Shown here one piece after another: positions 5,931-36,167 of a stretch of 37,051 nt of DNA (position 1 is the first letter of the stretch; every line of letters begins with the position of its first letter). Both the position numbers and the translations under genes were made by a program. The notes beneath the pieces were generated by a model. The model did not search any database. It saw nothing but the letters and a program-made list of their open reading frames with translations, and was not told the DNA's origin. The stretch spans positions 1 to 37,051 of the forward strand of contig JANOCJ010000363.1 in the NCBI GenBank assembly GCA_031412115.1, in the 5' to 3' direction. Source of the DNA: Flavobacteriales bacterium. Its GTDB lineage: Bacteria > Bacteroidota > Bacteroidia > CAMBQF01.

Positions 5931-5992
5931 TAGTTTACTATTACTAATGGTGTGTATTTTTTGACACAGGCCATATTTATAGTAAATAGAAT

Positions 5993-19818: not shown

Positions 19819-19819
19819 G

Positions 19820-20062
19820 ATGATATATAGCGAAGACAAATTTTTACGCCGCATTGAAGAAGAATTTACCGAGATAAAACCGGGCTCATTAACACCCGAA
19901 TCATCTATGCCAAAAATTATTGAGTGGAACTCAATGAACGTGTTATTATTCCTGGCATTTATATCAGAAGACACCGGCGTGCGCGCCAACTACGATGAGG
20001 TAAAACAGTTTGATACCTTGCACGACTTATATTTATTTTTAGGCGAAAGGGTTACAGCCTAA
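19820..20062 (+). CDS. Putative acyl carrier protein-like small protein
   Basis: 80 aa, acidic, placed between the ligase and KAS III with 1-2 nt gaps. The candidate phosphopantetheine Ser is in EWNSMNVLLFLAFI, where canonical ACPs have DSL/DSM. The assignment rests on position, size and a weak motif only. Confidence 0.5.
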   Translation: MIYSEDKFLRRIEEEFTEIKPGSLTPESSMPKIIEWNSMNVLLFLAFISEDTGVRANYDEVKQFDTLHDLYLFLGERVTA

Positions 20063-20064
20063 CA

Positions 20065-21120: not shown

Positions 21121-21949
21121 GCATTTGGAAACGCTCTCGCTATCTATCGTAATACCCGCTTTTAATACAGGCGCACAGCTAAGTGATTTGGTTGATTCGC
21201 TAACGGTATTCTTCCAAAATAAATTAAATTTTGAGGTAATTATTGTTGATGATTCAGGCAATGAAAATATCCTTTCCTTTAATCACCCTTCTATAAAATA
21301 CTTTAAGCTAAAAAACAACTACGGGCAGCATTTAGCAACGTATTACGGCATTTTGCAAGCCAAAGGCCAGCATATTTTAACACTAGATGATGATGTAATT
21401 TTGCCGGAGCAAAAGCTGGAAATTATAGCATCACGCCTTAACGAGCCTAACGATTTACAGTATTTTGTAAATGATGATTACAACGAAACCGATAAAATAA
21501 AATTTGCCATTATTAAAAATTTCTTTCGCTTTGCATTGTTCCGTACACCACCAAAATATGGCACATCGCAACGGTTGTTTACACACGAATTAGCACAAAA
21601 AATAATAGCACAAAAATACCGCTATATATACTTTGACGCCTTGCTTATGCTTCAATCTGAAAGTAAAACGCATTGTATAAATTATATTGCCAAAAACAAA
21701 TCGCCCGAACTAAAAAACAGGTATAGCCTGTCTAACCGCCTGTTTCTTCTTACCAATTCGTATTTGTTTTACACGCCGCTTGTTGCACAAATTGCATATT
21801 TATGGCTTATAATAGGCGTATGTTTATTAGCCTTTTACGCTACCCCCATTATAGGCTTGTTATTTATTTTTATCTTTATGCTAGCTGCACTATTCACTGT
21901 TTGGGGTTATACAACAGTAGTTACAGCCAATGATATTGAAACGGCATGA
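21110..21949 (+). CDS. Family 2 glycosyltransferase with C-terminal TM helices (polyprenyl-phosphate glycosyltransferase-like)
   Basis: 279 aa with LSIVIPAFN, IIVDDSGNE and LTLDDDV, plus two C-terminal hydrophobic helices. The start is TTG at 21110 or 21125; no ATG is available. Confidence 0.82.
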   Translation: MNIRHLETLSLSIVIPAFNTGAQLSDLVDSLTVFFQNKLNFEVIIVDDSGNENILSFNHPSIKYFKLKNNYGQHLATYYGILQAKGQHILTLDDDVILPEQKLEIIASRLNEPNDLQYFVNDDYNETDKIKFAIIKNFFRFALFRTPPKYGTSQRLFTHELAQKIIAQKYRYIYFDALLMLQSESKTHCINYIAKNKSPELKNRYSLSNRLFLLTNSYLFYTPLVAQIAYLWLIIGVCLLAFYATPIIGLLFIFIFMLAALFTVWGYTTVVTANDIETA

Positions 21950-22575
21950 CGATAGACCTTTACAACATAAAATATACGTTAATTACTGAAGATGATTTAG
22001 AGAAGCTACGCCAATGGCGCAATAGTGAGTATGTACGCTCTAAAATGTTATTTCAAAAAACCATTACACCCGAGGCGCAACTTAACTGGTATAACAGCCT
22101 TGACAAAAGCAAAAATTTCTACTTTATCATATCATCAGGCGGTGTAGAACTGGGCATGTCTAACATCAAAAACATTAATTACGAGAATAAAACCACCGAG
22201 CCAGGCATTTTTTTTATTGACGAAAAATTTTCAAATGGCGAGTTTTCCATCAATTGCGCATTAATAATGATTGAAATATCACTTTACTTTTTTGGGGCCA
22301 AGGAGCTACACTCTATGGCTATGAAAGACAATAAACCGGGCTTTGATTTTAACACCACATTGGGCTTTTTGCCAACGCAAGACCATGCAGACTATGTGGA
22401 TTTTACGCTAACGCGCGAAAATGGGCTAAAAACTACCCAACGCATACGCAAAGCGTTTGCCAAATTGTACAAAACAAGCCCCGATGAAAAGTTGAAAATA
22501 TCTATTGGCAATAACCCTTTTTTGCAACAGGTTTATAATAACTTAGCCGACAAAGAAAATATAGCTTTATGCTAG
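21946..22575 (+). CDS. GNAT N-acetyltransferase, PseH-like
   Basis: 209 aa. LRQWRNSEYVRSKM and the following pattern resemble the PseH-type aminosugar N-acetyltransferase signature. Its start overlaps the upstream stop in an ATGA arrangement. Confidence 0.72.
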   Translation: MTIDLYNIKYTLITEDDLEKLRQWRNSEYVRSKMLFQKTITPEAQLNWYNSLDKSKNFYFIISSGGVELGMSNIKNINYENKTTEPGIFFIDEKFSNGEFSINCALIMIEISLYFFGAKELHSMAMKDNKPGFDFNTTLGFLPTQDHADYVDFTLTRENGLKTTQRIRKAFAKLYKTSPDEKLKISIGNNPFLQQVYNNLADKENIALC

Positions 22576-23339
22576 CTAAAGAAGACTTTATACTGACCAT
22601 ACTGGAGCGCGGCTTTTACCTTGCCAAAAACGTTTTAACGCCCGATTTTGCTAAGCAACTGGCGGCGCATTTAGAAAATAGCATTGAGAAAGAAAATGCT
22701 TTTCACCAAGGGAAAGACCACCCTACTTTTGGGGCCTTACTTAATACTGCATTGTATGGCGGGCCTTTTTTAGACTTGTTGGAAAATGAAAATTTTGTCC
22801 AACCATTTAAGTGGTTTATTGCCGATAATTGCATTATTTATTCCTATTCATCGGCATCGGTGCCGCCAAATAGTAAAATATACACAGCCCGCATCCACGT
22901 TGATTCGCACAGAAAATCGACCGACCACCGTTTGGTGCTTGGGGCTATGGTTTTTTTAACAGGTTTTACTGAAGAGAATGGCTCGCCATATTACTTAGCA
23001 GGTTCACACAAAACAGCAGAGAAGCCGGATGAGGAATATTTTTACAAAAATGCCGATAAAATAGTGGGCGAAGCGGGCGATATATTTTATTTTGACCCCT
23101 TAGTTTGGCACACCGGCAGCTACAACGAAACTAATGATTGGCGCCATGCGCTAACCATAGGCTTTTGCGAGCCTTGGATGAAACAGCGCTTTGATTTCCC
23201 GCGAGTTTTAACCCAAAACGGATTGGATAAAACGATGACAGAAAACCAAAAACATTTACTTGGTTTTTATTCGCAGCCGCCCGTTACCTACGACGATTTT
23301 TATCAAAACACTTACCGATATAACCAAAAGATAGCTTAG
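22569..23339 (+). CDS. Phytanoyl-CoA dioxygenase (PhyH) family Fe(II)/2-oxoglutarate oxygenase
   Basis: 256 aa with IHVDSH (HxD), a distal His in LVWHTGSYN and a downstream Arg (WRHAL). Confidence 0.72.
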   Translation: MLAKEDFILTILERGFYLAKNVLTPDFAKQLAAHLENSIEKENAFHQGKDHPTFGALLNTALYGGPFLDLLENENFVQPFKWFIADNCIIYSYSSASVPPNSKIYTARIHVDSHRKSTDHRLVLGAMVFLTGFTEENGSPYYLAGSHKTAEKPDEEYFYKNADKIVGEAGDIFYFDPLVWHTGSYNETNDWRHALTIGFCEPWMKQRFDFPRVLTQNGLDKTMTENQKHLLGFYSQPPVTYDDFYQNTYRYNQKIA

Positions 23340-24319
23340 TGAAGAAAAAGGCGCTAACATTTGCTAAGCTGTTTCGCATTGCCGACTGGTGGAACTACCT
23401 TATTCCGCCAATATTGTGTTTTGTATACATTGGCTGTTTAAATAATACGCTGCCTTTTAAAGAGAGTATTTTGCCCTGTATAGTAATGTTGGTATCATCT
23501 ATAATAACGGCCTCATTCGGGTTTTATATAAACGATTTATTTGATATTAAAGATGATGCGCTGGCCGGCAAACACAACCAAATTGGGCAGCTAAACAGGG
23601 CATACCGCATACCACTGCTAATTATTCTTACACTATTATCTATTGCCCCGTGGCTACTTACCGATATTGATTTGCATATAAAAGCCTTGCTTATTGCACA
23701 ATATGTATTTTTTATAGGCTACTCTGCACCGCCCTTCAGGCTTAAGAAAAACAAGATATTTGCCTTGCTGCTCGACTCATTATACAGCGGTACCTTGTTT
23801 TATATTATTGCCCTGCTGGTAACCAACAATAACAAATACGTACACCCTTATTTAGTGTATGTTTTATTATTCTGCTGGGGATTTTCTAAGGGGTTACGCA
23901 ATATTTTATTACACGTTATTTTAGACAAAGAGAACGATGAAAAAGCAGACACCAAAACGCTTGCAACGCATTTGCCGCTATACAAATTGTTAAATTTTAT
24001 TTCGTACATAATTATACCACTTGAGGTAACATTTTTTGTTTTACTAATGTGGTTTTTGCTACTAAACTCAAAAGCAGCACTGTTTATTATAATTGGCTAT
24101 GGTTGCTTTTTGCTGTACTTACTTGTAAAACCACTGTTTTTAAAAGATAAGCACGGCCTAATTACTTTTTATCGCCTGAACGATTTTTACGAGATAGTTT
24201 TGCCCGGCCTCATACTGCTAATGCTGGCATACACCATAGATTACCGCTACCTGATAATACTGGCTATACATTATATTCTTTTCCCAAGGGTGTTGCTAAA
24301 ATTGAAAAAAGCATTGTAG
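23339..24319 (+). CDS. UbiA-family prenyltransferase (integral membrane)
   Basis: 326 aa with about 8 hydrophobic helices. The first Asp-rich motif is NDLFDIKDD (NDxxDxxxD) and the second is DKENDEKAD. The GTG start overlaps the upstream stop. Confidence 0.8.
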   Translation: MKKKALTFAKLFRIADWWNYLIPPILCFVYIGCLNNTLPFKESILPCIVMLVSSIITASFGFYINDLFDIKDDALAGKHNQIGQLNRAYRIPLLIILTLLSIAPWLLTDIDLHIKALLIAQYVFFIGYSAPPFRLKKNKIFALLLDSLYSGTLFYIIALLVTNNNKYVHPYLVYVLLFCWGFSKGLRNILLHVILDKENDEKADTKTLATHLPLYKLLNFISYIIIPLEVTFFVLLMWFLLLNSKAALFIIIGYGCFLLYLLVKPLFLKDKHGLITFYRLNDFYEIVLPGLILLMLAYTIDYRYLIILAIHYILFPRVLLKLKKAL

Positions 24320-24364: not shown

Positions 24365-25183
24365 ATGAGCAATGGCAACAACATAATTAATGGTTTGTGG
24401 ATAGGCAGCACGCTGTCGTCGCTAGAACTAATTACCATTAACTCATTTATTGCCAACGGCCATACGTTTAAGCTGTGGGCCTACGAACCTATAAAAACTC
24501 CACTACCGCAAGGCGTAGTTATTGCTGATGCTTCGGAAATTATTCCGGCAAGCTATATTTTTAGGTACAAACACAACAACCAGTTTGGCCACGGAAAGAA
24601 TAGCTTGGCAGGATTTTCAGACCTTTTTCGATATAAACTGCTATATGAAAAAGGCGGCTGGTGGGTTGATATGGATGTAACCTGCTTAAAGCCTTTTGAT
24701 TTTGAAGCAGAATATGTTTTTCGTAACCACCATAAGCTGCTAATGGTTGGCAACATTATGAAATGCCCGCAGGGCAGTGAGTTAATGCTACAATGCTACG
24801 AAGAAGCCAAAGGACAGGTTAATGCCGAAAACCGCGACTGGATGTTGCCCATTACGATATTGAATAATAATATTCTAAAACTAAATCTGGAAAAATACAT
24901 TATTGAGCTATCAAATAAAGATAGCTGGTACGATATACGCAACTTTTTCAGGCGAAAATTAAATGCGCCAAACCATTGGTATGCCTTACATTGGAATAAC
25001 GAAGAATTGGGCAGAAACAGCGTAAACAAAGCATCGCACGTGGCAAATTCACTTTACGGTGAGCTTATAAAAAAATACGGCATTCAGAATATATTGCTAA
25101 CCGGAGTTGATGCTGCTAAGTACCGTTTTAAGCTGAGTTTAACCTTTTTTGTGGTTAATTATTTTTACAAACGCTTTCTATAA
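24365..25183 (+). CDS. DXD-motif glycosyltransferase (GT32 / Gly_transf_sug-like)
   Basis: 272 aa. FSDLFRYKLLYEKGGWWVDMDV is the sugar-binding DXD region typical of this family. Confidence 0.72.
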   Translation: MSNGNNIINGLWIGSTLSSLELITINSFIANGHTFKLWAYEPIKTPLPQGVVIADASEIIPASYIFRYKHNNQFGHGKNSLAGFSDLFRYKLLYEKGGWWVDMDVTCLKPFDFEAEYVFRNHHKLLMVGNIMKCPQGSELMLQCYEEAKGQVNAENRDWMLPITILNNNILKLNLEKYIIELSNKDSWYDIRNFFRRKLNAPNHWYALHWNNEELGRNSVNKASHVANSLYGELIKKYGIQNILLTGVDAAKYRFKLSLTFFVVNYFYKRFL

Positions 25184-26303
25184 GGTTGTAATACTCATTT
25201 ACAATCGAATTTATATCAAACGCATTTCGGATTTTACTTACGCACTCCGCATCTACCAGCGGTTTGTGTTGTTGTTTTTTAGCAAAACAGGCTTCCAACT
25301 CATTTGCTAAAGCAGTATAATCATCGTAATTAATTAATGAGCCATTGCGGCCCGGATGTAACAATTCGTCTGTCCCACTAACAGGTGTAGAAATGATATA
25401 CTTACCCGCGCAAGCCGCTTCTATCAATGTCATAGGCATAGCCTCGTGGGTTGATGTCATTACGTACACATCAGCATTGGCAAAGTATGCGGGCATTTTA
25501 TCGTAATCAACTTTGCCTTCTAACTTTACGTACTCTGCCAAACCATTTGCATTAATATATTGTTCCAATTGGCTGTATAATACCCCATCTCCCACAATAT
25601 AAGCCTTAAATTTAATTTTATTTTTCAGTAGGTTTAATGCTTTAACAAACAATAGCGGGTTCTTTTGTGCTACAAGGCGTCCGGCAAACAAAATGGTTAA
25701 TTCGGCGCTTGCATTGGTGCTACCAATAGAAAACTGCCCTGTATCAATTCCATTAGCAATAACATGGTTGCTATCTATTTTCCCAACCAAATTATCTGCA
25801 TTAATTTTTAACTTCTGCGTAAGAGATATAATAGCCGCAGCTCTTTTACATACCCTATAAATAATAGGATACAAAGGCAAATGATACATTAACATTTTGC
25901 GCGGATAGAAAAAAGGAATATCATGTCCGTGCGAAATAATTACATACGGAATATTGTATTTTTTTTTCAAAAATTGGCCTACAATACCACCCGGAATAGA
26001 GAAATTACAGATAGCAATATCAAACGGTGCGTTGGCGTTATTCTTAAAAAACTGCATAGCCTTACGCATCCAATCATACATTTCCCAAGGGTTTGATTGA
26101 AACGCATGTTGGCGCTTGCTTTTTATGCGATGGATAGTGAGGTTGCCAGCAGTTTCCGTTTCCTTTTCGCCTGTAAAAAAAGCAGTAACAACAGTAACCT
26201 GAACACCTTTAACAGCAAGGCCCTCGGCAATATATTTGGTCATTACCCCGGCCCCGCCCCCAATGGGTGGGTACTCATAATTTAATATTAAAACCCGCCT
26301 CAC
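25155..26303 (-). CDS. Family 4 (GT-B, group 1) glycosyltransferase
   Basis: 382 aa with N-terminal ILNYEYPPIGGGAG and the C-terminal E-x7-E region EAMPMTLIEAACAGKYIIS. Its 3' end overlaps the convergent GT32 gene by 29 nt. Confidence 0.88.
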   Translation of the reverse strand: MRRVLILNYEYPPIGGGAGVMTKYIAEGLAVKGVQVTVVTAFFTGEKETETAGNLTIHRIKSKRQHAFQSNPWEMYDWMRKAMQFFKNNANAPFDIAICNFSIPGGIVGQFLKKKYNIPYVIISHGHDIPFFYPRKMLMYHLPLYPIIYRVCKRAAAIISLTQKLKINADNLVGKIDSNHVIANGIDTGQFSIGSTNASAELTILFAGRLVAQKNPLLFVKALNLLKNKIKFKAYIVGDGVLYSQLEQYINANGLAEYVKLEGKVDYDKMPAYFANADVYVMTSTHEAMPMTLIEAACAGKYIISTPVSGTDELLHPGRNGSLINYDDYTALANELEACFAKKQQHKPLVDAECVSKIRNAFDINSIVNEYYNLIESVCKNN

Positions 26304-27058
26304 TTTGTTATTCTGTTTTTTACAAATATAACAGCAGAAGCAAGCAAAACGGTAAGCATAGCCGAAGACATAATGGAAATAATTACAATATCGCCAAACT
26401 GGTTATCGCGCAGGGGTAGAAAAAACCTACCTATAAATACTAATGTAAAAATAGCAAAAAGCAGGTAATAATATAGCAGTTTATCGGCCTTTTTTATGGG
26501 CTTATACACCGGTATAGGCTGGTTGAATGACAATAGATGCAACACCATATAGCCTAACCCAAACAACGAAAATATGACCTGTAGAAAGAAATATACCTTA
26601 ACAGAAAAAGCTGATGCTATTGAAATATCAGAAGTAATTGTTTCAGGATACATTTTAGTAAATGTAGTATACTCATGCGTCAGGTTATCAAGCGCCAAAT
26701 GCACTACAACAGCAATAAATATAGAAAGTAAAAACACTCCGTACTTCTTCTTTAAATAGCCAATAAAATTAAACGCCAAAATACTTGAATATCGCACATC
26801 AAAAGGTGCCGGCAAGTGGGCTATTAACACATTTCGCACTAGCAAATGAAACAATACACTCATAATAACAGCTAAAGGCATGTACAAACTAAATATGCCA
26901 AATATATTATTTTCAATAATTGGGAAGGTAGAAAAGGTAAGGTACATGTGGCAATCGGGTGCTATGCTACCAAAAAAAAGGCCCGTGTATGAAAAATGCT
27001 TTGGCTTAATCTTTGCCAGTGGCAATACAAATGCGGGATGCGAGAAAGTAAACGGCAT
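26300..27058 (-). CDS. DUF4184-like polytopic membrane protein
   Basis: 252 aa. The N-terminus MPFTFSHPAFVLPL matches my recollection of the DUF4184 family. It has about 6 TM segments and overlaps the GT4 start by 4 nt. Confidence 0.6.
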   Translation of the reverse strand: MPFTFSHPAFVLPLAKIKPKHFSYTGLFFGSIAPDCHMYLTFSTFPIIENNIFGIFSLYMPLAVIMSVLFHLLVRNVLIAHLPAPFDVRYSSILAFNFIGYLKKKYGVFLLSIFIAVVVHLALDNLTHEYTTFTKMYPETITSDISIASAFSVKVYFFLQVIFSLFGLGYMVLHLLSFNQPIPVYKPIKKADKLLYYYLLFAIFTLVFIGRFFLPLRDNQFGDIVIISIMSSAMLTVLLASAVIFVKNRITK

Positions 27059-27093
27059 TGCCTTAAGCTTGAGTTTTATTATATTTGCTAACT

Positions 27094-28098
27094 ATGAAGC
27101 GTACAAAACTAACAATTAATACAGTGGCCAAAACCCTTACACTATTGTTATTGTTTGTGGCCGGCATTACTAGTGCACAAACTACAACTGCCGCCCCAAA
27201 AGATACTACACCTAAAGATACTACCAAAAAGGTTGAAACTATAAAGTTGCAACTGGTAAAACGATTAAATAAAAGCATTGAGCGCACCACGGCTTACCTG
27301 GAAACTGTTCCTGTGGACTCTATTGATATTGGCCTAACCTATGCCTTGCTAGACATTATAAAAAGAAAGTTTGGTTTAAAATTTAAAATGGCCGATAAGG
27401 TTGCTGTTGAAAGTAAGTTTCCTGAATTAAAAACAGGCAGGCTAAAACTTTACGGTATTTTTTATGACAACAACAAATCAATACCATTTACCCAACAAGA
27501 GCTTGATAAGCTTAAAGCAGAGCCTATAACATCATTATACGACGACAAATACCTACTAGGTGTAAGTATGTTTTGCAATGAGTTGCCCACACCGCCTGAG
27601 TATTTAACTACTTTTGCCGCTCGCATACAAAAATACAAGGAAGAACGCACCGGGCTTGACCCAATAACCGCAGGGTTTGCCTACATTAATTTTGATGAAA
27701 ATAATTGTAAAGAAGGAAAACTAAAACTGGACAGCTTATACAATGACATTGCTTTTATTTTGACCAATAAAAACGCCGGAAACTTAAGGGCTTTGTTGGA
27801 TTTGGAGTGGTTTTACAGCGAGCAGATGAATCTTTTGCCACCGGTATTAACATCCGCTATGTTATATAAAATAGGCAAATGCAATTTTTATACTTACAAT
27901 ATGCTTTTTAAGCTGCTTGAATTTCAGAATGAAGATGGCGGTTGGCACATGTTGGTTCAAAAAGGCAACTCATCATACTCTGCAAGCGTAGCATATTTAT
28001 GGCTAATGTTGGAGTTAAAGGCTAATGCTGATTGCATTGATAAAACAGCCGACTTAGAGCGTGAGGATGCTGGCACTCCAATTCCCCCCAAAGACTAG
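27094..28098 (+). CDS. Secreted hypothetical protein
   Basis: The tracked ORF starts at TTG 27085. ATG 27094 gives MKRTKLTINTVAKTLTLLLLFVAGITSAQ, a signal peptide followed by a Thr/Lys/Asp-rich linker. A single QNEDGGWH motif recalls the QW repeats of prenyltransferase/terpene-cyclase alpha-toroid folds. This is the only plus-strand gene in the minus arm. Confidence 0.55.
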   Translation: MKRTKLTINTVAKTLTLLLLFVAGITSAQTTTAAPKDTTPKDTTKKVETIKLQLVKRLNKSIERTTAYLETVPVDSIDIGLTYALLDIIKRKFGLKFKMADKVAVESKFPELKTGRLKLYGIFYDNNKSIPFTQQELDKLKAEPITSLYDDKYLLGVSMFCNELPTPPEYLTTFAARIQKYKEERTGLDPITAGFAYINFDENNCKEGKLKLDSLYNDIAFILTNKNAGNLRALLDLEWFYSEQMNLLPPVLTSAMLYKIGKCNFYTYNMLFKLLEFQNEDGGWHMLVQKGNSSYSASVAYLWLMLELKANADCIDKTADLEREDAGTPIPPKD

Positions 28099-29493
28099 TA
28101 TTTGATTATATAAACGCTCTTCGGGTATTTTCTCAAATATGCTTTTTTCATATTCTGGCAATAGTTGGTAATAGGTATTCAGCTTTTCATTCAACTCATC
28201 AATTTCGGCTAAATTATTGTCTTGTATATATCCACTTACACGCAAAACCGCATTTGCCAAATGGTTGTTTGTTTGTAATGCAATTGCTTGTTCGCGGGTC
28301 AAAGCGTCTTCTTTCCATTTTTTCAGTTGCTCAATATAGCTGTAAAACATAGCTGCATTTTTTCGTTCAATACCTGTTTGTGCAGGCAATACAGTTGCCG
28401 AAAAAGTGGTTATAAAACTTTCGATTTTCGAAGCCGGTAAATTCCAAATGGCAACATTATGGGGCTCATACACAGTATTAAAATAAGCGTTGGCATTAAG
28501 GCTGTTTGCGTATTCAATAAACTGTTGCAATTCAACCACTGTATTGCGCATTGGGCTGTAACAAATGCTAAATTCAGTACCTGTTTGTTTACAGTAGTTG
28601 GCAAAGTATTGTATGTTTTCCATCACCCGCTCATATTTTGAGTTTATGCGGATGGATTCCAGCTTCTCTTTCTCCAACGAATCAATAGATACGCCAATAT
28701 TAAACCTGCCGTTTGCCAGTACTTTTTTCACCTTTTCATTCAGCACCGTGGCATTGGTTTGCACATACATAAGGCAATCGGGACTTAGGGCCGCAATTTT
28801 ATCCCATAGTTGGTAGTATATATCAATCAAAAAAGGCTCACCGCCTAAAAATTTGGCGTATTGCAGGTGCGGTATATATTCTTCCAATTGAGTTACGAAT
28901 GCATTATCATACGGGTAGGGCAAAGGCGCTTGCTTTTCCCTGTTTTTGCGAATGGATGAGGAGCAATAACCGTTACACATAACACACTCTAAATTGCAAG
29001 TGTTGCTCAACTCAAAATCCATACGGGTTGGATACTTGCCCGATGATGTAAAATAATCGTACGTGGCGGCGTTTACGGCCATGTAATTTTTACTCTCTAC
29101 AGCTAATGCACAACGCTGGCATCCTAATGAAAAATCGCCTTCGTCAATATGGCGGCGCAGTTCATCGGCACGTTCTCCATACCAAATATCGTTAATGCTG
29201 TTATCAGGGTACTTGCCTAAATCATACTCGCGGTTAAAACAACATGCGGTTACAGCCCCGGTAGTGCCAAAATAAAGGTTCGAAAATGGGGCATAGCAAA
29301 TTTTTGCACGTGCACCTAAAATGCGGCTTTTGTTATATGCATCAATGTTTTGAGGCGAATTGGCATTGTAATTCTTTTTCTTGCCCAATACAGTAAAAAC
29401 AAAATTGTTGTAACCTTTAATTGTGGCAATAGCAGAACTGCGAAGCAATGGCTTCGATATAACCAGATTACGAATAGATGCGATAAGTCCCAA
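28054..29493 (-). CDS. Radical SAM enzyme with N-terminal SPASM/twitch-like Cys motif (paralog 1)
   Basis: 479 aa. The core is ELSNTCNLECVMCNG (CX3CX2C) with LGGEPFL. It is preceded by CYAPFSNLYFGTTGAVTACC (C-x12-G-x4-C) and GCQRC (CxxC). The TTG start at 29493 is uncertain, and there is no in-frame ATG upstream of the Cys motif. Confidence 0.85.
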   Translation of the reverse strand: MGLIASIRNLVISKPLLRSSAIATIKGYNNFVFTVLGKKKNYNANSPQNIDAYNKSRILGARAKICYAPFSNLYFGTTGAVTACCFNREYDLGKYPDNSINDIWYGERADELRRHIDEGDFSLGCQRCALAVESKNYMAVNAATYDYFTSSGKYPTRMDFELSNTCNLECVMCNGYCSSSIRKNREKQAPLPYPYDNAFVTQLEEYIPHLQYAKFLGGEPFLIDIYYQLWDKIAALSPDCLMYVQTNATVLNEKVKKVLANGRFNIGVSIDSLEKEKLESIRINSKYERVMENIQYFANYCKQTGTEFSICYSPMRNTVVELQQFIEYANSLNANAYFNTVYEPHNVAIWNLPASKIESFITTFSATVLPAQTGIERKNAAMFYSYIEQLKKWKEDALTREQAIALQTNNHLANAVLRVSGYIQDNNLAEIDELNEKLNTYYQLLPEYEKSIFEKIPEERLYNQILVFGGNWSASILTL

Positions 29494-29653
29494 ATGTATT
29501 AGGATTTATCACAATGTATTTACTATAATTTTAACAACCAATAATCCTATGTTAAGATTTTGGTACATAAACACAATACGCTGATTTTTAAGCTATTGAA
29601 TTTTAGTTATATACTAAAAATTAAATTATAGTTTATGCGCACGAAATTTACAA

Positions 29654-31144
29654 TTACTCAAGCAGATAGCCTTCAATTTTATCTATAAACTTAGTATTAT
29701 CAAATATCTCCGTGTCGTATTTAATCCACTCAAAAGGCAATGCATTTAGCTTAACAAGTATTTTATGTTTATCTGTTTGAGCATCCAAAAAATTCACAAT
29801 CAAATTATTAAACTTGTTAAGCGAAAGGATAAATTCATCAGGGTTTAGCGCATGCATATAGCTAAATATTTCTTCTATTTTAGCTAAAAAAATTTGCAGC
29901 AAAATATCATCGCTTACAGCATCCAGCCGGTCAATTTCCTGCTGGCGTGTAATAGCTACTGTGGCCCAGCTTTGCACTTGTTTAATAAACCCTGCAATAA
30001 CTGTAGCATTGTGTTTTTCAAAAAAATTGTTTTGGGTAGGGGTGTATGCCGTTAATACATTTTCAATGGCTTTCAACTTATCGTGGCTCAACGTCCACAA
30101 CGATTGTACTGCAGGTTGCATAACCGTATTAATATTAAGCAACGCGCCTATTTTATTGGCAAACTCAAGCACCTGCGGTAACTCGTTCCAGTTGCTGCGC
30201 AAAGGGCAAAAGCTTAGGGTAAGAAAAGTATTCTTCTTACGCGAGTATTCTGCTAGAAATTGAATATTCTCTATAACCCTATCGTAATTGGCGTTTACGC
30301 GTATGGCTTCGTATGTTTTTTTGTTGAATGAATCAATAGATATTCCAATGTGAAAATTGCCTTTCTCCAACAGGTTTTTTACCTTGGCATTCATAACCGT
30401 AGCATTGGTTTGCAAGCGTATTTCGCAGTTGGGGTTTAAAGTGATTATCTTCTCCCAAATGCTGTAATAGCTATCAATTAAAAATGGCTCGCCTCCCAAA
30501 AAATTAGCCACTTTAAGGTGGGGTATGTATTCATCCAATTGGGCTAAAAACTCAGCACCATAGGGCGAAATAATTGGTGCTTTATGCTCCCTATTTTTAC
30601 GTATGGATGATGAAAATTCGCCCGAGCACATAATACACTCAAGGTTACAGGTGTTTGATAATTCAAAGTCGAAACGCGTAGGGTATTGTGGCTCATCTTC
30701 GGCCTCATAATCATATTTAGCCGCCATTACCGATGAGTAATCGCCCGCAACCAATTGTTGCTTGCAAAGCTGGCAGCCGCCGCCTAAGTCAAAATTATCA
30801 ATGCGCTCTCGCAGTTCATTTGCTTTAGCGCCTTTCCATATTTGAGATATACTGTTTTCCGGATAAAACCCTAACGGCACATCACGGTTATAGCAGCAGG
30901 CCATTACCTTTCCATCAATAGCAAAATACATGTTGTTAAAGGGCGCATAGCACACCTTTTTACCCGGTCCAAACTTGCGGCTTTTGTAATAAGCTTTTAC
31001 ATTTTTCTCAGGCAACGTTCCCTCCGGAACATTGACTGTTGGCAGAAAAGCGTTACGGCCAAATTGGTATACAGATGTTGCCACCTCAAACATTTTGGGT
31101 GGTAAAACCTGTGCTACTTTTTTTATAAATCGGGCCTTGGGCAT
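29654..31144 (-). CDS. Radical SAM enzyme with N-terminal SPASM/twitch-like Cys motif (paralog 2)
   Basis: 496 aa. The core is ELSNTCNLECIMCSG with LGGEPFL. It is preceded by CYAPFNNMYFAIDGKVMACC and GCQLC. Its ATG abuts the stop of the upstream PhyH gene. Confidence 0.88.
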   Translation of the reverse strand: MPKARFIKKVAQVLPPKMFEVATSVYQFGRNAFLPTVNVPEGTLPEKNVKAYYKSRKFGPGKKVCYAPFNNMYFAIDGKVMACCYNRDVPLGFYPENSISQIWKGAKANELRERIDNFDLGGGCQLCKQQLVAGDYSSVMAAKYDYEAEDEPQYPTRFDFELSNTCNLECIMCSGEFSSSIRKNREHKAPIISPYGAEFLAQLDEYIPHLKVANFLGGEPFLIDSYYSIWEKIITLNPNCEIRLQTNATVMNAKVKNLLEKGNFHIGISIDSFNKKTYEAIRVNANYDRVIENIQFLAEYSRKKNTFLTLSFCPLRSNWNELPQVLEFANKIGALLNINTVMQPAVQSLWTLSHDKLKAIENVLTAYTPTQNNFFEKHNATVIAGFIKQVQSWATVAITRQQEIDRLDAVSDDILLQIFLAKIEEIFSYMHALNPDEFILSLNKFNNLIVNFLDAQTDKHKILVKLNALPFEWIKYDTEIFDNTKFIDKIEGYLLE

Positions 31145-32014
31145 TTAGTTGCGCTGTTTAGCAAAGTACCTATAAAAATTGATAAGGTTGAGATTAGCCT
31201 TTTGCAAAGGCTCATGTCGCAACAAACGGTATTTGGCTGATGGGCGTTTGGTAATTTCTTCGGTATAAAAAAACTCGGGTGTAATATCAAAAACATCAAC
31301 CATACCTGCCGGTGTTTGCGCATCGGTAAAATAGTGGCAATAAGGGCTGGCCTTGGGCTTTACCAAGCCGTTTACCGCAAGTCTATAGTTGCTTGTTTGG
31401 TTTGGTGGCGATGAATGTATCATAGCACTATGAAAGATAACCGCTTGGCCCGCCTTTACCATGAGGGGTTTCATAAAGCGGTACATTACCAAATAGTACG
31501 GTATTTTATTAAACTCCCACGGCACGTTTAGCGAGCGTTGCTTATTGCCTAACTTATGGCTGCCCGGCAAAATATGCAGGGTACCATTCTGCATGGTAGT
31601 ATCCTCTAGCGGGCACCAAATGTACACAGCCAAAAACTGCTCTTCATCAACATGCGAACTATCTTGATGCGGGTTTAATTTGCTTTTGCTGCCGGGTGGT
31701 TTTATTTGGTGCACACCCGAAATAAAATCAATTTCGTCAGCAATAAAATACTTTGCAATGCCCTGTTGGTAGTATTTGCGTATAATTTGGGTAGATAGCA
31801 TTCGCATTTCAGCCTCGGGTATGCGCCCGGCAGATTGAAACGTTTTAACGCTACCAAAGCCATTCTCCAACAGCTTATCCATCATCTCGCCTGACTCTCT
31901 CCTCAACCCTTCTATCCCTTCATTATCAATAAAATTTACTATGGCATAACCCTGCTCCTCAATGGTTTGTTGAAGTGCTTCATCTTTAAAAATTTGTGGG
32001 TAGCGCGTTGCCAT
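31145..32014 (-). CDS. PhyH-family Fe(II)/2OG oxygenase (array member 5 of 5 in transcription order)
   Basis: 289 aa with NPHQDSSHVDE (HxD), WCPLEDTTMQNGTLHILPGSH, MIHSSPPN (distal His) and Arg in NYRLAV. Confidence 0.78.
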   Translation of the reverse strand: MATRYPQIFKDEALQQTIEEQGYAIVNFIDNEGIEGLRRESGEMMDKLLENGFGSVKTFQSAGRIPEAEMRMLSTQIIRKYYQQGIAKYFIADEIDFISGVHQIKPPGSKSKLNPHQDSSHVDEEQFLAVYIWCPLEDTTMQNGTLHILPGSHKLGNKQRSLNVPWEFNKIPYYLVMYRFMKPLMVKAGQAVIFHSAMIHSSPPNQTSNYRLAVNGLVKPKASPYCHYFTDAQTPAGMVDVFDITPEFFYTEEITKRPSAKYRLLRHEPLQKANLNLINFYRYFAKQRN

Positions 32015-32016
32015 TG

Positions 32017-32874
32017 TTATAAACTATTATACGCTTTATCAAACTGCTCGGCTGTTAGGTAATTTTCTTTAAACGGCACAGTTTCGGCTTGAAATACTCC
32101 GTTTGGTGTATCAATTGTTTGCGAGTACAAGGCATCGGCAAAGTCTTTGCCGGTATTGTAATTCATAAAAAAATCATAATCTACCACGTACTTATTTAGC
32201 ACATTGGGCTGCGCTGCGTTGCGTACATAATGGTATACCTTATCATTGGCCGGAAGCATAAGCAAACCTGCCGAAACACGGGTATTTAACGTATGATTAG
32301 GGCCTGATGCATGCAACATAGCCTGCGTAAAAATCACTGCTTTGCCGGCAGGTAATTCTAAGCGCTTTTTGTATTTACGTTCTATGTACTTTTTAATATG
32401 GTCGTGCTCTTGCGGAACATTTGCACCGCGCAAGGCGCGCAGTATGCGGTGCGATTTTGGCACTACCTGCAAGCAGCCGTTCCATTTATCTACATCAACC
32501 AAAGGGCACCAAATAAATATGGATTGATATTGGCTTTCATCAACAAAAGTCCAATCCTGATGCACGGTTATTTTATCAAAAAAACTGGGCTTTTTAATCA
32601 GCACGTCCGAGAAAAAAGGGGCGTAATTTGAATGGAACAATGATTTTACTTTCTTTCCAAAAGCTTCTTTAATAAGGCGGTCTACGGTTAGCCTGTATTC
32701 TTTATTACTGCTCCACAACGATGCGTAAAAGCGTTTCTTCACTCCCGAATCCAGCTTCAATAATTTGGTACGTAAGGCATCGCATTCGTCCCTGTTTAGT
32801 ATATCTACCGTAACAAAGCCATTTTCTTTAAACTCGTGGTCTAAAGCCGTATCGTTAAAAATTTGCGCCAGCAT
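32017..32874 (-). CDS. PhyH-family Fe(II)/2OG oxygenase (array member 4)
   Basis: 285 aa with VHQDWTFVDE, WCPLVDVDKWNGCLQVVPKSH, LHASGPN and NTRVS. Confidence 0.78.
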   Translation of the reverse strand: MLAQIFNDTALDHEFKENGFVTVDILNRDECDALRTKLLKLDSGVKKRFYASLWSSNKEYRLTVDRLIKEAFGKKVKSLFHSNYAPFFSDVLIKKPSFFDKITVHQDWTFVDESQYQSIFIWCPLVDVDKWNGCLQVVPKSHRILRALRGANVPQEHDHIKKYIERKYKKRLELPAGKAVIFTQAMLHASGPNHTLNTRVSAGLLMLPANDKVYHYVRNAAQPNVLNKYVVDYDFFMNYNTGKDFADALYSQTIDTPNGVFQAETVPFKENYLTAEQFDKAYNSL

Positions 32875-33701
32875 TATTGGTTAATGTATTTTAACAATTC
32901 CTCCTTGCTCAGTTCAATGTGCTTATTCTCTTTGTGGCCAATAGGTTTAGCTCCTTCGGGGCGGGTTTCTTTTACAAAATTTTCGTAAAAATCAAGCCCA
33001 ATTTCATACACTTCCACCATCTCTTTTGGTAAAAATTTATCCCAGTAATACATAATGGTTTGCACGTCTTTAGGCACCATATCTATCCGCAATGAAACAC
33101 GTGGGCTATCGGCATTGTTGGGTGCTGAATAATGCAATGAACGATTGATAAAAACCAAGGCATCACCGGCTTTCATAGGCACCAATGTCATATGGCTTTT
33201 CTCAAAATAATCGTATAGTTCTTCGTAATAACGTTTAACACCCGGGCCACGTACTTTATTCATAAACTTGTGGCTGCCCCTAAGCATTTGCAGCGCGCCG
33301 TTGTTGGCATCAACATCGCTAAAAGGTATCCACACCACGCACGATTCGTACTTGCTTTCATCTACGCAACTTATATCAAAGTGCATATTTACCTTCGATT
33401 TTTTGCCCTTTGTTTTTACTACAAAGTTGCCGGTCATAGGTACATAATCATTCAAATATATCTCTGCCGAACGGCTAATTGCCTTGCGTATAGACTGGTT
33501 TACGTGGTTTTTATAATTGGGGTCGCTACTATCAATCGTTGAATAATACTTGCGGTCAATATTAGGGTCGTAGCTTTGGTAGGCATTGCGAATAAACTCG
33601 AGTTCCTCAGAATTCAAAAAATTTTTAAATACAACAAACCCGTCATTTTCAATTTGGGTGTTAAAAGTATCCTCCCTAAATATTTTGCGTACACTATCCA
33701 T
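32874..33701 (-). CDS. PhyH-family Fe(II)/2OG oxygenase (array member 3)
   Basis: 275 aa with MHFDISCVDE, WIPFSDVDANNGALQMLRGSH, LHYSAPN and SPRVS. Its stop and the next start overlap as TAATG. Confidence 0.78.
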   Translation of the reverse strand: MDSVRKIFREDTFNTQIENDGFVVFKNFLNSEELEFIRNAYQSYDPNIDRKYYSTIDSSDPNYKNHVNQSIRKAISRSAEIYLNDYVPMTGNFVVKTKGKKSKVNMHFDISCVDESKYESCVVWIPFSDVDANNGALQMLRGSHKFMNKVRGPGVKRYYEELYDYFEKSHMTLVPMKAGDALVFINRSLHYSAPNNADSPRVSLRIDMVPKDVQTIMYYWDKFLPKEMVEVYEIGLDFYENFVKETRPEGAKPIGHKENKHIELSKEELLKYINQ

Positions 33702-33703
33702 CG

Positions 33704-34534
33704 CTAACTTAACTCGTTATAAAATTCCTGCTCTGTTAAAAAATTGTTTTGCTGTTTTACTTTGCCCCTGTATGGTGCATTTTCAGGGGTGCTGCGTTTA
33801 TCATACACATCAAAAAACTGCTCATCAACCCCATAGATTTTTATGCCGCTAAAGGGCCAAAAACGGTTGTTGTAATACAGCACACATTCAACACCCTTGG
33901 GCTTGCACGCTATAATAATAGCAGGCCTTTCGGCACTACTTTTATTGTTTGGCGAGTAATGCAGCAGCGCATTGTGGTAAAACAACCCATCGCCTTTTTT
34001 CATTGGCAACGGTTTTAATAAAGGGCTGTTTAACAAGCCCGGGTAATACTGAGTATAGTACTCTTTAACCCAAGGCCCGCGGGCTTTGTTGGTTATTTTA
34101 TGGCTGCCTTCAATTACGTGCATACAACCGTTAGTCTCGTTTACATCAACCAAAGGGCACCAAACAGTAAGCGATTGGTAATGCGTCTCGTCATAAATGC
34201 TCCAGTCGGTGTGCATAGCTACCACGCTTTGGCTGGCGGGCTTTTTGGTGATGAAGCCTGTATAAAACGCTTGGTAATCTTTACAATATTTTTCTATCTG
34301 CCCGTTTTGCAAAACTGACTTTATGCCACGGTCAACGTACTTGCGGTACTCGGCATCGCCACTGTCGGTAGATGCGTAAAAACCGCGCTGCACTTTGCTG
34401 TCGGCGCTATTAAACATAGCAAACAAAGCAGCAATATCATCGTCGGTCAAAAAAGGCTGTATTACGTAGCCCTTTGCAACAAACGTTTCATTCAATTCTT
34501 TATTTGTAAAAACAGGTATCATAACCCTAGCCAT
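33704..34534 (-). CDS. PhyH-family Fe(II)/2OG oxygenase (array member 2)
   Basis: 276 aa with MHTDWSIYDE, WCPLVDVNETNGCMHVIEGSH, LHYSPNN and AERPA. An alternative start at Met5 (34522) abuts the methyltransferase stop exactly and aligns better with the paralog N-termini. Confidence 0.78.
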   Translation of the reverse strand: MARVMIPVFTNKELNETFVAKGYVIQPFLTDDDIAALFAMFNSADSKVQRGFYASTDSGDAEYRKYVDRGIKSVLQNGQIEKYCKDYQAFYTGFITKKPASQSVVAMHTDWSIYDETHYQSLTVWCPLVDVNETNGCMHVIEGSHKITNKARGPWVKEYYTQYYPGLLNSPLLKPLPMKKGDGLFYHNALLHYSPNNKSSAERPAIIIACKPKGVECVLYYNNRFWPFSGIKIYGVDEQFFDVYDKRSTPENAPYRGKVKQQNNFLTEQEFYNELS

Positions 34535-35304
34535 TTTAAAAAGCCGCTACCTTCGGCGGGCTTTATTAACCGTAGTTCCAGCCATTCGGCGGGGGCAAAT
34601 TCTTTCAGCCCTTTGTAATTATCTATACCGAATTTATCTTCGAACTTGCGGCGTATTTCTATGTCAGAATTAAAGCTGATGTGCTTGATGTAATCAATTT
34701 CAAAACCGCATTGGCGAAAGGCATCTAACGTTTGCGAAAGCCCTAAAGTGCTATAGCTGTAGTTAACGTTCATGTTTTTTATCACCTCGTTTATGCGGGT
34801 CTGTGCAGCTTCATCTAACGATATTTTGTAAAAAAAATCTTTTATGTAAACAAAAGCGCCGGGCTTTAATACCTCGTAAACGCCTTGTACCACTTGGGCT
34901 ACATTGCTTGCATGCCCCAGCGATTCAAGAAACAACGCACCATCAAAAGTGTTTTGTTTGAAGTATTGCGGCAGGTTGTGGTAATCGCCTTCGGTAACGT
35001 CAATTATCTTATCAAGCCTACGGGCATTAACGCGCTGTTTTGCAATGCCTGCCTGCTGTGGCGATACAGTTAAACAACTGAATTTTACGCCTGCCTTTTC
35101 GGCCATGGCAATAGCAGGGCCGCTTACACCCGAACCTGCATCCAGTATATGCTGGCCTTTTTGCAAGCCTGCATTTTGGGCGGTATAGGTTGCCAACTCA
35201 CCATCGCTGGTGGGGCGAAACGCCTGTATTACATCGCCATACACGTCAAGGTACTTTACCGTCCACTCGTCGTAGTATTGCTTTACTTCCTCAACAGTTG
35301 CCAT
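34519..35304 (-). CDS. Class I SAM-dependent methyltransferase (SMT/CFA-synthase-like N-terminal YYDxW...YG pattern)
   Basis: 261 aa with QYYDEWTVKYLDVYGDVIQAF, motif I ILDAGSGVSGPA and a later acidic/loop LFLESLGH. Confidence 0.82.
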   Translation of the reverse strand: MATVEEVKQYYDEWTVKYLDVYGDVIQAFRPTSDGELATYTAQNAGLQKGQHILDAGSGVSGPAIAMAEKAGVKFSCLTVSPQQAGIAKQRVNARRLDKIIDVTEGDYHNLPQYFKQNTFDGALFLESLGHASNVAQVVQGVYEVLKPGAFVYIKDFFYKISLDEAAQTRINEVIKNMNVNYSYSTLGLSQTLDAFRQCGFEIDYIKHISFNSDIEIRRKFEDKFGIDNYKGLKEFAPAEWLELRLIKPAEGSGFLKWLGL

Positions 35305-35306
35305 TG

Positions 35307-36167
35307 TTATGCTGTCTCCAAACCGGCGTTAGCCATTATCTCTTTAAACTTTTTGTAGTTGATGCGTGGGTGCTGATACTCTACCACACGGCTGCTTTTT
35401 ACCTCCTTCGGCTCCTCTTTAATATGAAAATTAAAGTTCAGAAAGAAGTCTTGGTCAACCAAAAGCTCGCGGTATTCGGTTTTAAACAACGATTTTTTGC
35501 GATAGTAATGTATAGCAGGGGCCACTATAGGCTTGGCTATTACCTGTATTACCAAACGGGCATAGCCGCCTTGGTTTGGTTTTGAATAATGGATAATGCT
35601 ATCGTCAAAAATCAAGGCCTCGCCAGCTTTTACGGTTACCGGTTTTAGGTAATCGTGCTTCAACTCCTCAATATACCCTTTAAAAAACCAAGGGATTGTT
35701 GGGCTGCGGTGTATGTTGCGAAAGGTGCGATGCGTACCGGGAATAAACTCCAACGCGCCGCTGTTTTCGCCCACATCAACCAAAGGGGCCCAAACCGATA
35801 CTGAGGTAAATTTATGCTCATCAACAAAGTCCCAGTTTTGGTGTACGGGTACTTCGCCAAGGCCGTGTTCTTTATTTACAAAATTTATAACCAAAGGCTC
35901 GTAGCCGTTTAAATACTTATCAAGCGCGGGGGCAAATACTTTAGAGAGGGTTTCAAACACCTTGCGTTTATACTCCCTATTCGAATCGAGAAAAGAGAAA
36001 TGGTAGCTAACGCTTTTATCCTGTGTGTTAAAACGCTCGTTGGGTTTTTGCTCTTCGTGAAAGCGGCGCAGTTCGGCTATTGTTTCTTCGTCAAACAGCT
36101 TCACTTTTACATAGCCCATTTTATCAAACTCCGCCTGTAACTTATCGTCTAGTAATACTCTGTGCAT
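35307..36167 (-). CDS. PhyH-family oxygenase-like protein with HxN in place of HxD (array member 1)
   Basis: 286 aa. VHQNWDFVDE aligns with VHQDWTFVDE and MHTDWSIYDE of the paralogs. The codons CAC CAA AAC were read on the minus strand at 35843-35835. WAPLVDVGENSGALEFIPGTH, IHYSKPN and YARLV are retained. Confidence 0.78.
   Translation of the reverse strand: MHRVLLDDKLQAEFDKMGYVKVKLFDEETIAELRRFHEEQKPNERFNTQDKSVSYHFSFLDSNREYKRKVFETLSKVFAPALDKYLNGYEPLVINFVNKEHGLGEVPVHQNWDFVDEHKFTSVSVWAPLVDVGENSGALEFIPGTHRTFRNIHRSPTIPWFFKGYIEELKHDYLKPVTVKAGEALIFDDSIIHYSKPNQGGYARLVIQVIAKPIVAPAIHYYRKKSLFKTEYRELLVDQDFFLNFNFHIKEEPKEVKSSRVVEYQHPRINYKKFKEIMANAGLETA

Follow-up and report, generated by a model that had tools for sequence, protein, structure and literature searches.

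Auxiliary iron-sulphur domains of the SPASM/twitch type are described in a current review as C-terminal extensions of the radical S-adenosylmethionine (SAM) core (PMC9012708). The founding twitch enzyme is BtrN (4M7T/4M7S), the 2-deoxy-scyllo-inosamine dehydrogenase of butirosin biosynthesis. It acts on a carbohydrate-like substrate, not on a peptide, and its auxiliary [4Fe-4S] cluster, bound by four Cys ligands, is the proposed electron acceptor in a two-electron oxidation (PMC9012708). Here we analyse two tandem genes, rSAM-A and rSAM-B, in a 37,051-nucleotide contig of a Flavobacteriales bacterium (JANOCJ010000363.1; the whole contig is hereafter called the window), whose products appear to carry a twitch domain in front of the radical SAM core.

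The auxiliary domains of NeoN and HygY, epimerases of aminoglycoside sugars, are C-terminal. These enzymes offer a mechanistic precedent in which a hydrogen atom is abstracted from a sugar C-H and hydrogen is returned by a conserved non-ligand Cys; Cys249 is the hydrogen-atom donor of NeoN, and HygY is a twitch epimerase with a latent dehydrogenase activity that is revealed on loss of its non-ligand Cys (PMC10991966). A cluster-bearing domain N-terminal to the core, as in the window proteins, is known from the archaeal tetraether lipid synthase Tes (MJ0619, 7TOL), which is a radical SAM enzyme and has an extra [4Fe-4S] domain in that position (PMC13459092). Tes differs from the window proteins in that this cluster is held by three Cys and one His, and in its additional C-terminal and rubredoxin-like metal domains. 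Its substrates are prenyl-derived lipids, which come from a pathway with a UbiA-family enzyme.

The domain in front of the radical SAM core

The rSAM-A and rSAM-B proteins are 48% identical over 358 residues (BLAST, E 2e-126), with the similarity stopping near residue 404. In rSAM-B, the N-terminal part reads C65-x12-G78-x4-C83C84, IWKGAKANELR (residues 102-112) and GCQLC (123-127, that is, G-C124-x2-C127), and is followed by the core motifs CNLECIMC (166-173; C166-x3-C170-x2-C173), GGEPFL (217) and QTNAT (245). The motifs of rSAM-A are identical in kind, offset by +1 in the N-terminal part, and the core cysteine motif of the pair is CNLEC(I/V)MC. A first-pass annotation, made from the letters alone, had read the order Cys/G/CC, (I/L)W.G..A.ELR, GCxxC and then CX3CX2C, GGEPFL and QTNAT, and we located every one of these motifs exactly in both open reading frames (ORFs). 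Its spacing needs one correction: the (I/L)W.G..A.ELR segment, which it put about 40 residues past CC, starts ~18 residues past it, and G-C-x2-C is the ~40-residue element. Judged by sequence, the occurrence of the signature and its order in both paralogues is far beyond chance.

Pfam scans place a SPASM match (PF13186; model positions 1-66 of 67, 33-37 bits against a gathering score of 21.5 bits) at residues 65-127 of rSAM-B and 66-128 of rSAM-A. In both it precedes the Radical_SAM match (PF04055), which spans 161-328 in rSAM-B and 161-302 in rSAM-A and, at 46 and 64.6 bits in the two proteins against a gathering score of 29.5 bits, assigns them to the radical SAM superfamily. The profile coordinates thus agree with the earlier reading in putting a SPASM-type domain in front of the barrel, above the gathering score in both proteins. 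The signature C-x9-15-G-x4-C...C-x2-C is present and homologous to the structurally defined twitch domain, and the domain (62-136) lies ahead of the core (150-345); it is not the C-terminal extension of the literature.

A profile of the domain alone (residues 55-150, alignment A2), searched against all PDB sequences, found a single significant match, BtrN (4M7S/4M7T), at residues 163-239 near the C-terminus of the chain (E 1.7e-7); the next matches, c-type cytochromes at E >0.1, are noise. Counting residues by hand along the printed alignment pairs C169, C187, C232 and C235 of BtrN with C65, C83, C124 and C127, and C84, the extra Cys beside a ligand in the window family, with F188. AlphaFold modelling of the domain by itself (pLDDT 84) gave four PDB fold matches in all. 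The best were BtrN 4m7s and 4m7t (TMq 0.51 and 0.49; root-mean-square deviation 2.4 and 1.6 A; 57 and 54 columns; 26-28% identity), and the remaining ones, PqqE and EpeE, were weak; the modest fold E-values (0.05-0.18) are due to the shortness of the domain. BtrN nevertheless differs from the window proteins in having its twitch domain after the barrel (163-239 of ~250), in its length of ~250 amino acids (aa) without a helical tail, and in being absent from the 50 fold matches listed for full-length rSAM-B.

In an alignment of 42 diverse homologues, C65, C83, C124, C127 and the three Cys of the SAM cluster are invariant, and C84 and C313 are kept in 90% or more. A wider census of ~226 true members found the same four N-terminal Cys essentially invariant, C84 in 204 of 226 and C313 in 203 of 228 (otherwise Thr or Ser), and no conserved Cys C-terminal to the core. 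The Cys fall at positions 65, 83, 84, 124 and 127 and then in the SAM-cluster motif; the last is C313 in rSAM-B and C311 in rSAM-A, with no Cys-rich region past the core. These sets suit two [4Fe-4S] clusters, with all four BtrN ligand positions kept at the auxiliary site. From the four invariant Cys at those positions, one auxiliary [4Fe-4S] cluster in the predicted twitch site is likely, and the N-terminal region as a whole is, by profile and by model, highly likely to be a one-cluster, BtrN-type twitch domain ahead of the barrel.

The earlier claim of an N-terminal SPASM/twitch signature therefore stands in that a true homologue of the auxiliary-cluster domain precedes the barrel, and falls in that this is twitch only, with four invariant Cys and one cluster. 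A full SPASM domain with two auxiliary clusters was rejected because the CX2CX5CX3C part of the seven-Cys motif is absent, as is the final Cys, and CxxC occurs alone. A zinc ribbon or another unrelated fold was likewise rejected: the BtrN twitch domain ranks first by profile and by model, and no zinc ribbon is among the matches. Neither the twitch profile nor the 50 fold matches listed gave any signal of a relation to the N-terminal cluster domain of Tes. The arrangement is also no artefact of gene boundaries, in which the twitch domain would be the C-terminus of an upstream radical SAM protein in a tandem array; a PhyH gene precedes rSAM-B, and 34 of the 59 family loci described below are single-copy, with twitch domain and core in one ORF. 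Enzymes of the SPASM/twitch class give the best matches to the core as well as to the N-terminal domain, so an exchange of domain order inside this class is a reasonable reading.

The core, the C-terminal region and differences between the paralogues

The full-length AlphaFold model of rSAM-B (pLDDT 89.9, pTM 0.87) begins with three helices of lower confidence. The twitch domain follows as a beta-hairpin (71-74/79-81) and helices 99-116 and 125-133, then the core with six strands between 157 and 338, and then long C-terminal helices between 354 and 495 (354-366, 374-407, 412-433, 435-454 and others). In the 50 PDB matches listed for this model the core alone was matched (~220-240 columns, TMq ~0.33), and no solved structure with the whole architecture was among them. 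SkfB came top, with BlsE, SuiB, viperins, NifB, anSME, DesII and EpeE also found; BlsE, the viperins and DesII act on sugars or nucleotides. A PDB sequence search with the whole protein returned viperin-like cores alone (E ~3e-3).

The divergence of the two C-terminal tails, proposed in the first-pass annotation, was confirmed: aligning the last 75 and 92 residues globally gives 12 identities and a score of -32, so that no sequence relation is seen, and the rSAM-B tail is helical in the model. Whether read as a sign of different partners or of different substrates, as in that annotation, the divergence is at most suggestive. The paralogues also differ within the core, where the non-ligand Cys is shifted by two residues on one strand (S311/C313 in rSAM-B, C311/S313 in rSAM-A). 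This Cys-Ser swap could, from the sequences, reflect different substrate positioning.

The two genes are separated by an AT-rich gap of 160 bp (29494..29653). The gap contains TACATTTG, which overlaps the annotated TTG start of rSAM-A and which we take to resemble the Bacteroidetes -7 promoter element TAnnTTTG. Because of this promoter-like overlap, rSAM-A and rSAM-B may be separately transcribed and the true rSAM-A start may lie further downstream; the uncertain start has no effect on the domain assignment.

Family membership and distribution

The layout as a whole is already catalogued as NCBIfam NF033640 ("N_Twi_rSAM", "twitch domain-containing radical SAM protein"). Positions 2-367 of the 398 in this model align with residues 62-396 of both window proteins (E ~1e-49), so that the match runs end to end with the twitch domain N-terminal to the core, and all 42 aligned homologues match it too (best E 1.2e-52). 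The scores, 167.8 bits for rSAM-A and 167.1 bits for rSAM-B, fall narrowly short of the curated cut-off of 170 bits. On these sequence scores both proteins are therefore a divergent Bacteroidota branch of NF033640, which the NCBI pipeline would name merely "radical SAM protein". The whole architecture of the family matches theirs, with the difference that their long helical C-terminal extension runs past the model. A homologue on a plasmid of Methylomagnum ishizawai, 40% identical, bears the NF033640 product name in RefSeq (PGAP).

Since a curated model exists, novelty of the domain order does not hold. The first-pass annotation had allowed that the order might prove to be an already described, functionally assigned family; it is indeed a known, curated family, but NF033640 itself has no assigned function. 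Our literature searches found no paper on an N-terminal twitch/SPASM arrangement or on any characterised member, and nothing relevant on twitch domains with polysaccharide or O-antigen or on the gene combination described below.

The spread of the layout was surveyed with a profile of the twitch domain, linker and CX3CX2C motif (residues 45-180, alignment A3) against 1.84 billion cluster representatives at 50% identity. It recovered 501 proteins at E <=1e-30 and 1,746 at E <=1e-10, that is, ~500-1,750 clusters at 50% identity that share the layout. Among the best 150 matches, the region is N-terminal or nearly so (starting by residue ~65) in all but six, and in these it comes after a first module or some other domain. 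Species-representative genomes were scanned as well and encode 568 relatives. Most of the 77 best loci are from Bacteroidota (Chitinophagales, Saprospiraceae, Flavobacteriales, Crocinitomicaceae and Sphingobacteriales), with others from Ruegeria, Hoeflea, Marinibacterium, Burkholderiaceae, Planctomycetota, Thermodesulfobacteriota and Cloacimonadota.

Conserved neighbours and fusion proteins

In 59 family loci no shorter than 12 kb we called ORFs, grouped these into clusters and searched again with iterated hidden Markov models, verifying the labels by Pfam. The radical SAM gene is present once in 34 loci, twice in 11, three times in 7, four times in 4, and six and seven times in one locus each; one locus has no called copy. 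Its most frequent neighbours encode a large DXD glycosyltransferase (27 loci), SGNH/GDSL proteins (26), an AsnB-type amidotransferase (22) and UbiA (20, often directly beside AsnB). An ATP-binding cassette (ABC) ATPase and a TPR membrane protein are found in 19 loci each, a methyltransferase in 18, an NAD-dependent sugar epimerase in 17, PhyH in 10-15 (up to ten copies per locus), a GT8-like protein in 12, a Wzm permease in 9, sulfotransferases in 7 and B12-radical SAM enzymes in 6.

Many Bacteroidota loci have in common the order UbiA-AsnB-SDR-radical SAM (one to seven copies)-DXD glycosyltransferase-SGNH-GT8-like-TPR membrane protein, with Wzm/Wzt exporters. A second type of locus combines an ABC exporter and one radical SAM gene with a PhyH array, UbiA and a methyltransferase; the window is similar to this type and has glycosyltransferases besides. 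PhyH arrays of up to nine or ten genes lie beside a single twitch radical SAM gene in loci L006/L041, L048 and L070, and L006 also encodes a WelO5-family (halogenase-type) gene.

The same module occurs in a different phylum, on the 274-kb plasmid of M. ishizawai (strain RS11D-Pr; L084; NZ_AP019784.1, 172644-201726; locus K5658_RS21510), with transposases at one end. It runs from GT39, GT2, a FAD oxidoreductase, several glycosyltransferases (GT4 twice), an SDR and a polyprenyl synthetase to the twitch radical SAM gene, AsnB and UbiA, and past UbiA continues with an ABC permease and ATPase, a methyltransferase, PhyH and a sulfotransferase. The polyprenyl synthetase is of the short-chain farnesyl/geranylgeranyl diphosphate (FPP/GGPP) type. 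The likeness of the UbiA partners to other enzymes is weak, and is to archaeal-type prenyltransferases or homogentisate phytyltransferase. We found no support for UbiA being a decaprenyl-phosphate phosphoribosyltransferase in a DprE1/DprE2-like epimerisation, as the UbiA resemblance differs, the SDR is like nucleotide-sugar epimerases and the L084 synthase is of the FPP/GGPP type.

Further links come from fusion proteins. UbiA is fused to the twitch-radical SAM unit in P0218, a DXD glycosyltransferase in P0011 and P0064, and a GT4-like part, at the C-terminus, in an 853-aa protein (L068:10764-13325). All three of these partners are encoded by separate genes in the window. We regard this as the strongest evidence that the radical SAM enzymes share one membrane-associated, lipid-linked intermediate with the prenyltransferase and glycosyltransferases. 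Pfam scans also revealed two twitch-radical SAM modules in one chain (P0121, P0122, P0124 and P0127), which suggests that the tandem paralogues cooperate. Had the domain order evolved through duplication, fusion and truncation, two-module chains of this type would be expected as intermediates.

In pathway logic the conserved module is like, by analogy alone, the moenomycin-type phosphoglycolipid pathway (moe, Streptomyces ghanaensis). That pathway comprises prenyl transfer to a lipid anchor, a UDP-glucuronic acid 4-epimerase, AsnB-like amidation of uronic acid, radical SAM sugar tailoring, glycosyltransferases and ABC export. MoeO5 is not known to belong to the UbiA family, and MoeK5 is a radical SAM methylase of the B12 type and is not known as a twitch enzyme. 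The genes moeE5, moeK5 and moeO5 make the first monosaccharide intermediate (PMC3814723), which supports the comparison in part.

The gene cluster in the window

The features are collected in Table 1. On the minus strand the gene order is GT4, DUF4184, rSAM-A, rSAM-B, four PhyH genes, a class I methyltransferase and a further PhyH gene. A metagenomic contig (L001, 69% identity) has the entire cluster with the gene order unchanged. NCBIfam gave generic matches at best for the neighbouring genes in the window.

Table 1. Positions in the window of the two radical SAM genes, their domains and variable core residues, and the surrounding cluster
Feature	Position	Strand	Basis
rSAM-A (paralogue, architecture as rSAM-B)	28054..29493	-	ORF, 479 aa; begins with TTG, true start uncertain
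Twitch domain of rSAM-A (residues 62-136; Cys 66, 84, 85, 125, 128)	29086..29310	-	Pfam SPASM 66-128
Radical SAM core of rSAM-A (residues 150-345; C311/S313)	28459..29046	-	Pfam, BLAST, motifs
rSAM-B (twitch, radical SAM core, helical C-terminal region)	29654..31144	-	ORF, 496 aa
Twitch domain of rSAM-B (residues 62-136; Cys 65, 83, 84, 124, 127)	30737..30961	-	Domain profile, domain model, Cys conservation
Radical SAM core of rSAM-B (residues 150-345; CX3CX2C 166-173, GGEPFL 217, QTNAT 245, conserved non-ligand C313)	30110..30697	-	Pfam, model, motifs, fold matches
Helical region past the core, rSAM-B (residues 346-496)	29657..30109	-	AlphaFold model; last ~90 residues (from ~405) without similarity to rSAM-A
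Residue 311 codon, rSAM-A (Cys)	28561..28563	-
Residue 311 codon, rSAM-B (Ser)	30211..30213	-
Residue 313 codon, rSAM-A (Ser)	28555..28557	-
Residue 313 codon, rSAM-B (Cys)	30205..30207	-
Acyl-AMP ligase, 80-aa acyl carrier protein (ACP)-like ORF, ketoacyl-ACP synthase III (KAS III), GT2, GNAT, PhyH (acyl/glycosyl part of cluster)	18097..23339	+	Pfam; syntenic in L001
UbiA-like prenyltransferase	23339..24319	+	Pfam UbiA, 29.9 bits, below gathering score
DXD glycosyltransferase (Gly_transf_sug)	24365..25183	+	Pfam
GT4 glycosyltransferase	25155..26303	-	Pfam
DUF4184 membrane hydrolase-like gene (-) and unannotated 337-aa secreted-looking protein (+)	26300..28098	both	Conserved in L001; DUF4184 also in L006
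Four PhyH dioxygenase paralogues, class I methyltransferase, fifth PhyH, directly upstream of rSAM-B	31145..36167	-	Pfam; same order in L001

In all, six PhyH (Fe/2OG dioxygenase) paralogues are encoded in the window (22569..23339, plus strand; 31145..34534 and 35307..36167, minus strand). The gene for the 337-aa secreted-looking protein (27085..28098, plus strand), between DUF4184 and rSAM-A, is convergent with rSAM-A, and the 3' ends of the two overlap by 45 bp. Its product has no Pfam or NCBIfam match and contains "QNEDGGWH", which is like the QW repeat of prenyltransferases and squalene cyclases; an unannotated 318-aa ORF without Pfam match takes its place in L001.

Upstream of the cluster lies a fused ABC_membrane and ABC_tran exporter, MsbA-like (13302..15062, plus strand). 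Together with a similar exporter directly before the radical SAM gene in L006, it suggests lipid-linked export in the loci with PhyH arrays. Another protein of the window ends in a sorting tail for type IX secretion, which marks the DNA as that of a Bacteroidota genome. A region of low GC content (3121..8892; 0.31-0.34 against ~0.40-0.46 elsewhere), with a resolvase (3121..3744), a phage-type integrase (7642..8892) and a helix-turn-helix protein, adjoins GltX and FolB and is probably an integrated mobile element.

Possible roles of rSAM-A and rSAM-B

The reading that we favour, with moderate confidence, is that rSAM-A and rSAM-B are NF033640-type enzymes with two predicted [4Fe-4S] clusters that tailor a lipid-anchored (prenyl- or acyl-linked) glycoconjugate, made and exported by a conserved pathway, and are not peptide maturases. 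The link to a lipid-anchored glycoconjugate pathway is likely. As to the reaction itself, our best guess, drawn by analogy, is a C-H oxidation or epimerisation of the BtrN/HygY/NeoN type on the lipid-anchored glycoconjugate. The first-pass annotation had found a lipid/glycan context odd for such enzymes; for twitch enzymes it is not anomalous, as BtrN, MoaA, NeoN and HygY act on small molecules or sugars.

In the proposed mechanism, the SAM-cleaving cluster would be bound by C166, C170 and C173 and the auxiliary cluster by C65, C83, C124 and C127 of the twitch domain. Working closely with the UbiA-type prenyltransferase and the glycosyltransferases, the enzymes would use the 5'-deoxyadenosyl radical to take a hydrogen atom from a C-H of a lipid-linked saccharide. 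The substrate radical could then pass one electron to the auxiliary cluster, fully ligated and of low potential, and yield a ketone, as in BtrN (a net two-electron oxidation). Alternatively, a conserved non-ligand Cys (candidates are C313 in rSAM-B, C311 in rSAM-A, or C84) could quench the radical from the opposite face and give an epimer, as in NeoN and HygY. The family has two candidates for such a Cys, C84 and C313, each conserved at ~90%. The tandem paralogues might serve different positions or successive residues and could form a heterodimer.

Several findings weigh against this reading. Its substrate and chemistry are drawn by analogy from other enzymes; both proteins miss the NF033640 cut-off, as given above; AsnB and SDR, which belong to the commonest cassette, are absent from the window cluster; in many loci with a single copy no partner genes could be recognised; and oxygen-dependent PhyH enzymes stand beside oxygen-sensitive radical SAM enzymes, for which we offer no explanation. 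Nor is the family confined to glycan contexts. The alphaproteobacterial homologues of Ruegeria and Hoeflea are short (374-375 aa) and lack the long helical region. In Ruegeria sp. SCP10 (L071:9974-18038), Pfam identifies beside the homologue a 1,762-aa type I polyketide synthase (KS-AT-KR-ACP-MT) and a thioesterase, and the Hoeflea locus (L065) has ORFs that are similar to these by size alone (1,783 aa and 262 aa). What all phyla have in common is the biosynthesis of a lipid chain (prenyl, polyketide or acyl), with glycan assembly added in the Bacteroidota and Methylomagnum modules, and this is the ground for an alternative in which the lipid, not the sugar, would be modified. There, hydrogen abstraction from an unactivated C-H of a prenyl or acyl chain would lead to C-C coupling, cyclisation, desaturation or hydroxyl-equivalent chemistry, like that of Tes, Gms and GrsA/B, and the PhyH array would hydroxylate the same chain. 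Partners that build lipid chains recur across phyla in agreement with this: UbiA adjacent or fused, the FPP/GGPP-type synthase beside the Methylomagnum enzyme, the polyketide synthase and thioesterase of Ruegeria, and the acyl-AMP ligase, ACP and KAS III of the window. The window methyltransferase resembles cyclopropane-fatty-acid synthases, and PhyH takes its name from phytanoyl-CoA dioxygenase, an enzyme whose substrate is an isoprenoid acyl chain. The extended helical part at the C-terminus of the model could form a hydrophobic binding site, and Tes, with its N-terminal [4Fe-4S] domain, is a precedent for a front-placed cluster in a lipid-modifying radical SAM enzyme (PMC13459092). The profile of the N-terminal domain, however, misses Tes (7TOL) even at E up to 10, its sole significant relative, BtrN, acts on an aminocyclitol, and Tes is absent from the 50 fold matches listed for the full-length model; moreover, glycosyltransferases of two kinds occur as fusion partners and glycan genes dominate the commonest cassette, both of which favour a saccharide. 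We therefore consider modification of the lipid unlikely, though a serious contender.

Much less room is left for the other two explanations. If the N-terminal Cys formed a structural or other metal site, whether zinc or a [2Fe-2S] cluster, or if the domain were a degenerate twitch relic, it would have no redox role. The identity of a metal cannot be read from sequence, and SkfB, the top fold match of the full-length model, has an N-terminal [2Fe-2S] domain (PMC6231123). Yet all four auxiliary-ligand positions of BtrN are invariant, which is unexpected for a relic, the Pfam SPASM match is full-length and above the gathering score, and the isolated domain matched radical SAM enzymes alone by fold (BtrN and then, weakly, PqqE and EpeE); such a site seems improbable to us. 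It is more improbable still that the two proteins mature a ribosomally made, post-translationally modified peptide (RiPP), cross-linking or epimerising a peptide encoded nearby, with the glycan and lipid genes as unrelated neighbours. The cores do match many NCBIfam models of SPASM-type peptide maturases at 25-56 bits, SkfB and SuiB are among the top fold matches, and ABC exporters are common in RiPP clusters (PMC11002830). Those model matches, however, lie far under their cut-offs and cover the core only, and a Pfam scan of both proteins found no PqqD/RRE domain, although no systematic search for short precursor ORFs was made. The twitch domain is of the one-cluster kind with BtrN as its sole close relative, and the conserved neighbours and fusion partners across two phyla are UbiA, glycosyltransferases, AsnB, a sugar epimerase and SGNH proteins.

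If the favoured role in glycoconjugate tailoring is carried to its full extent, the N-terminal-twitch enzymes would be an unrecognised class of catalysts, physically complexed with UbiA and glycosyltransferases, as the fusions to each of these suggest, that oxidise or epimerise the sugars of prenyl-anchored glycans by radical chemistry. Arrays of up to seven paralogues and two-module chains would then edit a surface polymer at many sites, each position-specifically, much as peptides are epimerised by iterative radical chemistry. The front twitch domain would in that case be permuted in a true three-dimensional sense, with the electron-acceptor geometry of BtrN retained, possibly from a tandem-fused ancestor. 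We put this forward tentatively and think it rather unlikely.

Implications

The literature treats the auxiliary domain of SPASM/twitch enzymes as C-terminal, and genome mining approaches these enzymes mostly as peptide maturases; in the NF033640-type layout the auxiliary domain is on the N-terminal side. The family extends over ~500-1,750 clusters at 50% identity in several phyla, and we found no structure or biochemistry for it. The survey of context and fusions turns a bare database name into a testable hypothesis, that of a cross-phyla module for a lipid-anchored glycoconjugate, with UbiA, AsnB, glycosyltransferases, an ABC exporter and often PhyH arrays. The likely partners can be read from the fusion proteins, and M. 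ishizawai, a cultured methanotroph, is a host tractable for genetics. Should the hypothesis fail, the layout would stand as a correct but already catalogued architectural variant; should radical epimerisation or oxidation of glycan residues prove true, it would be a new type of surface-glycan modification in Bacteroidota.

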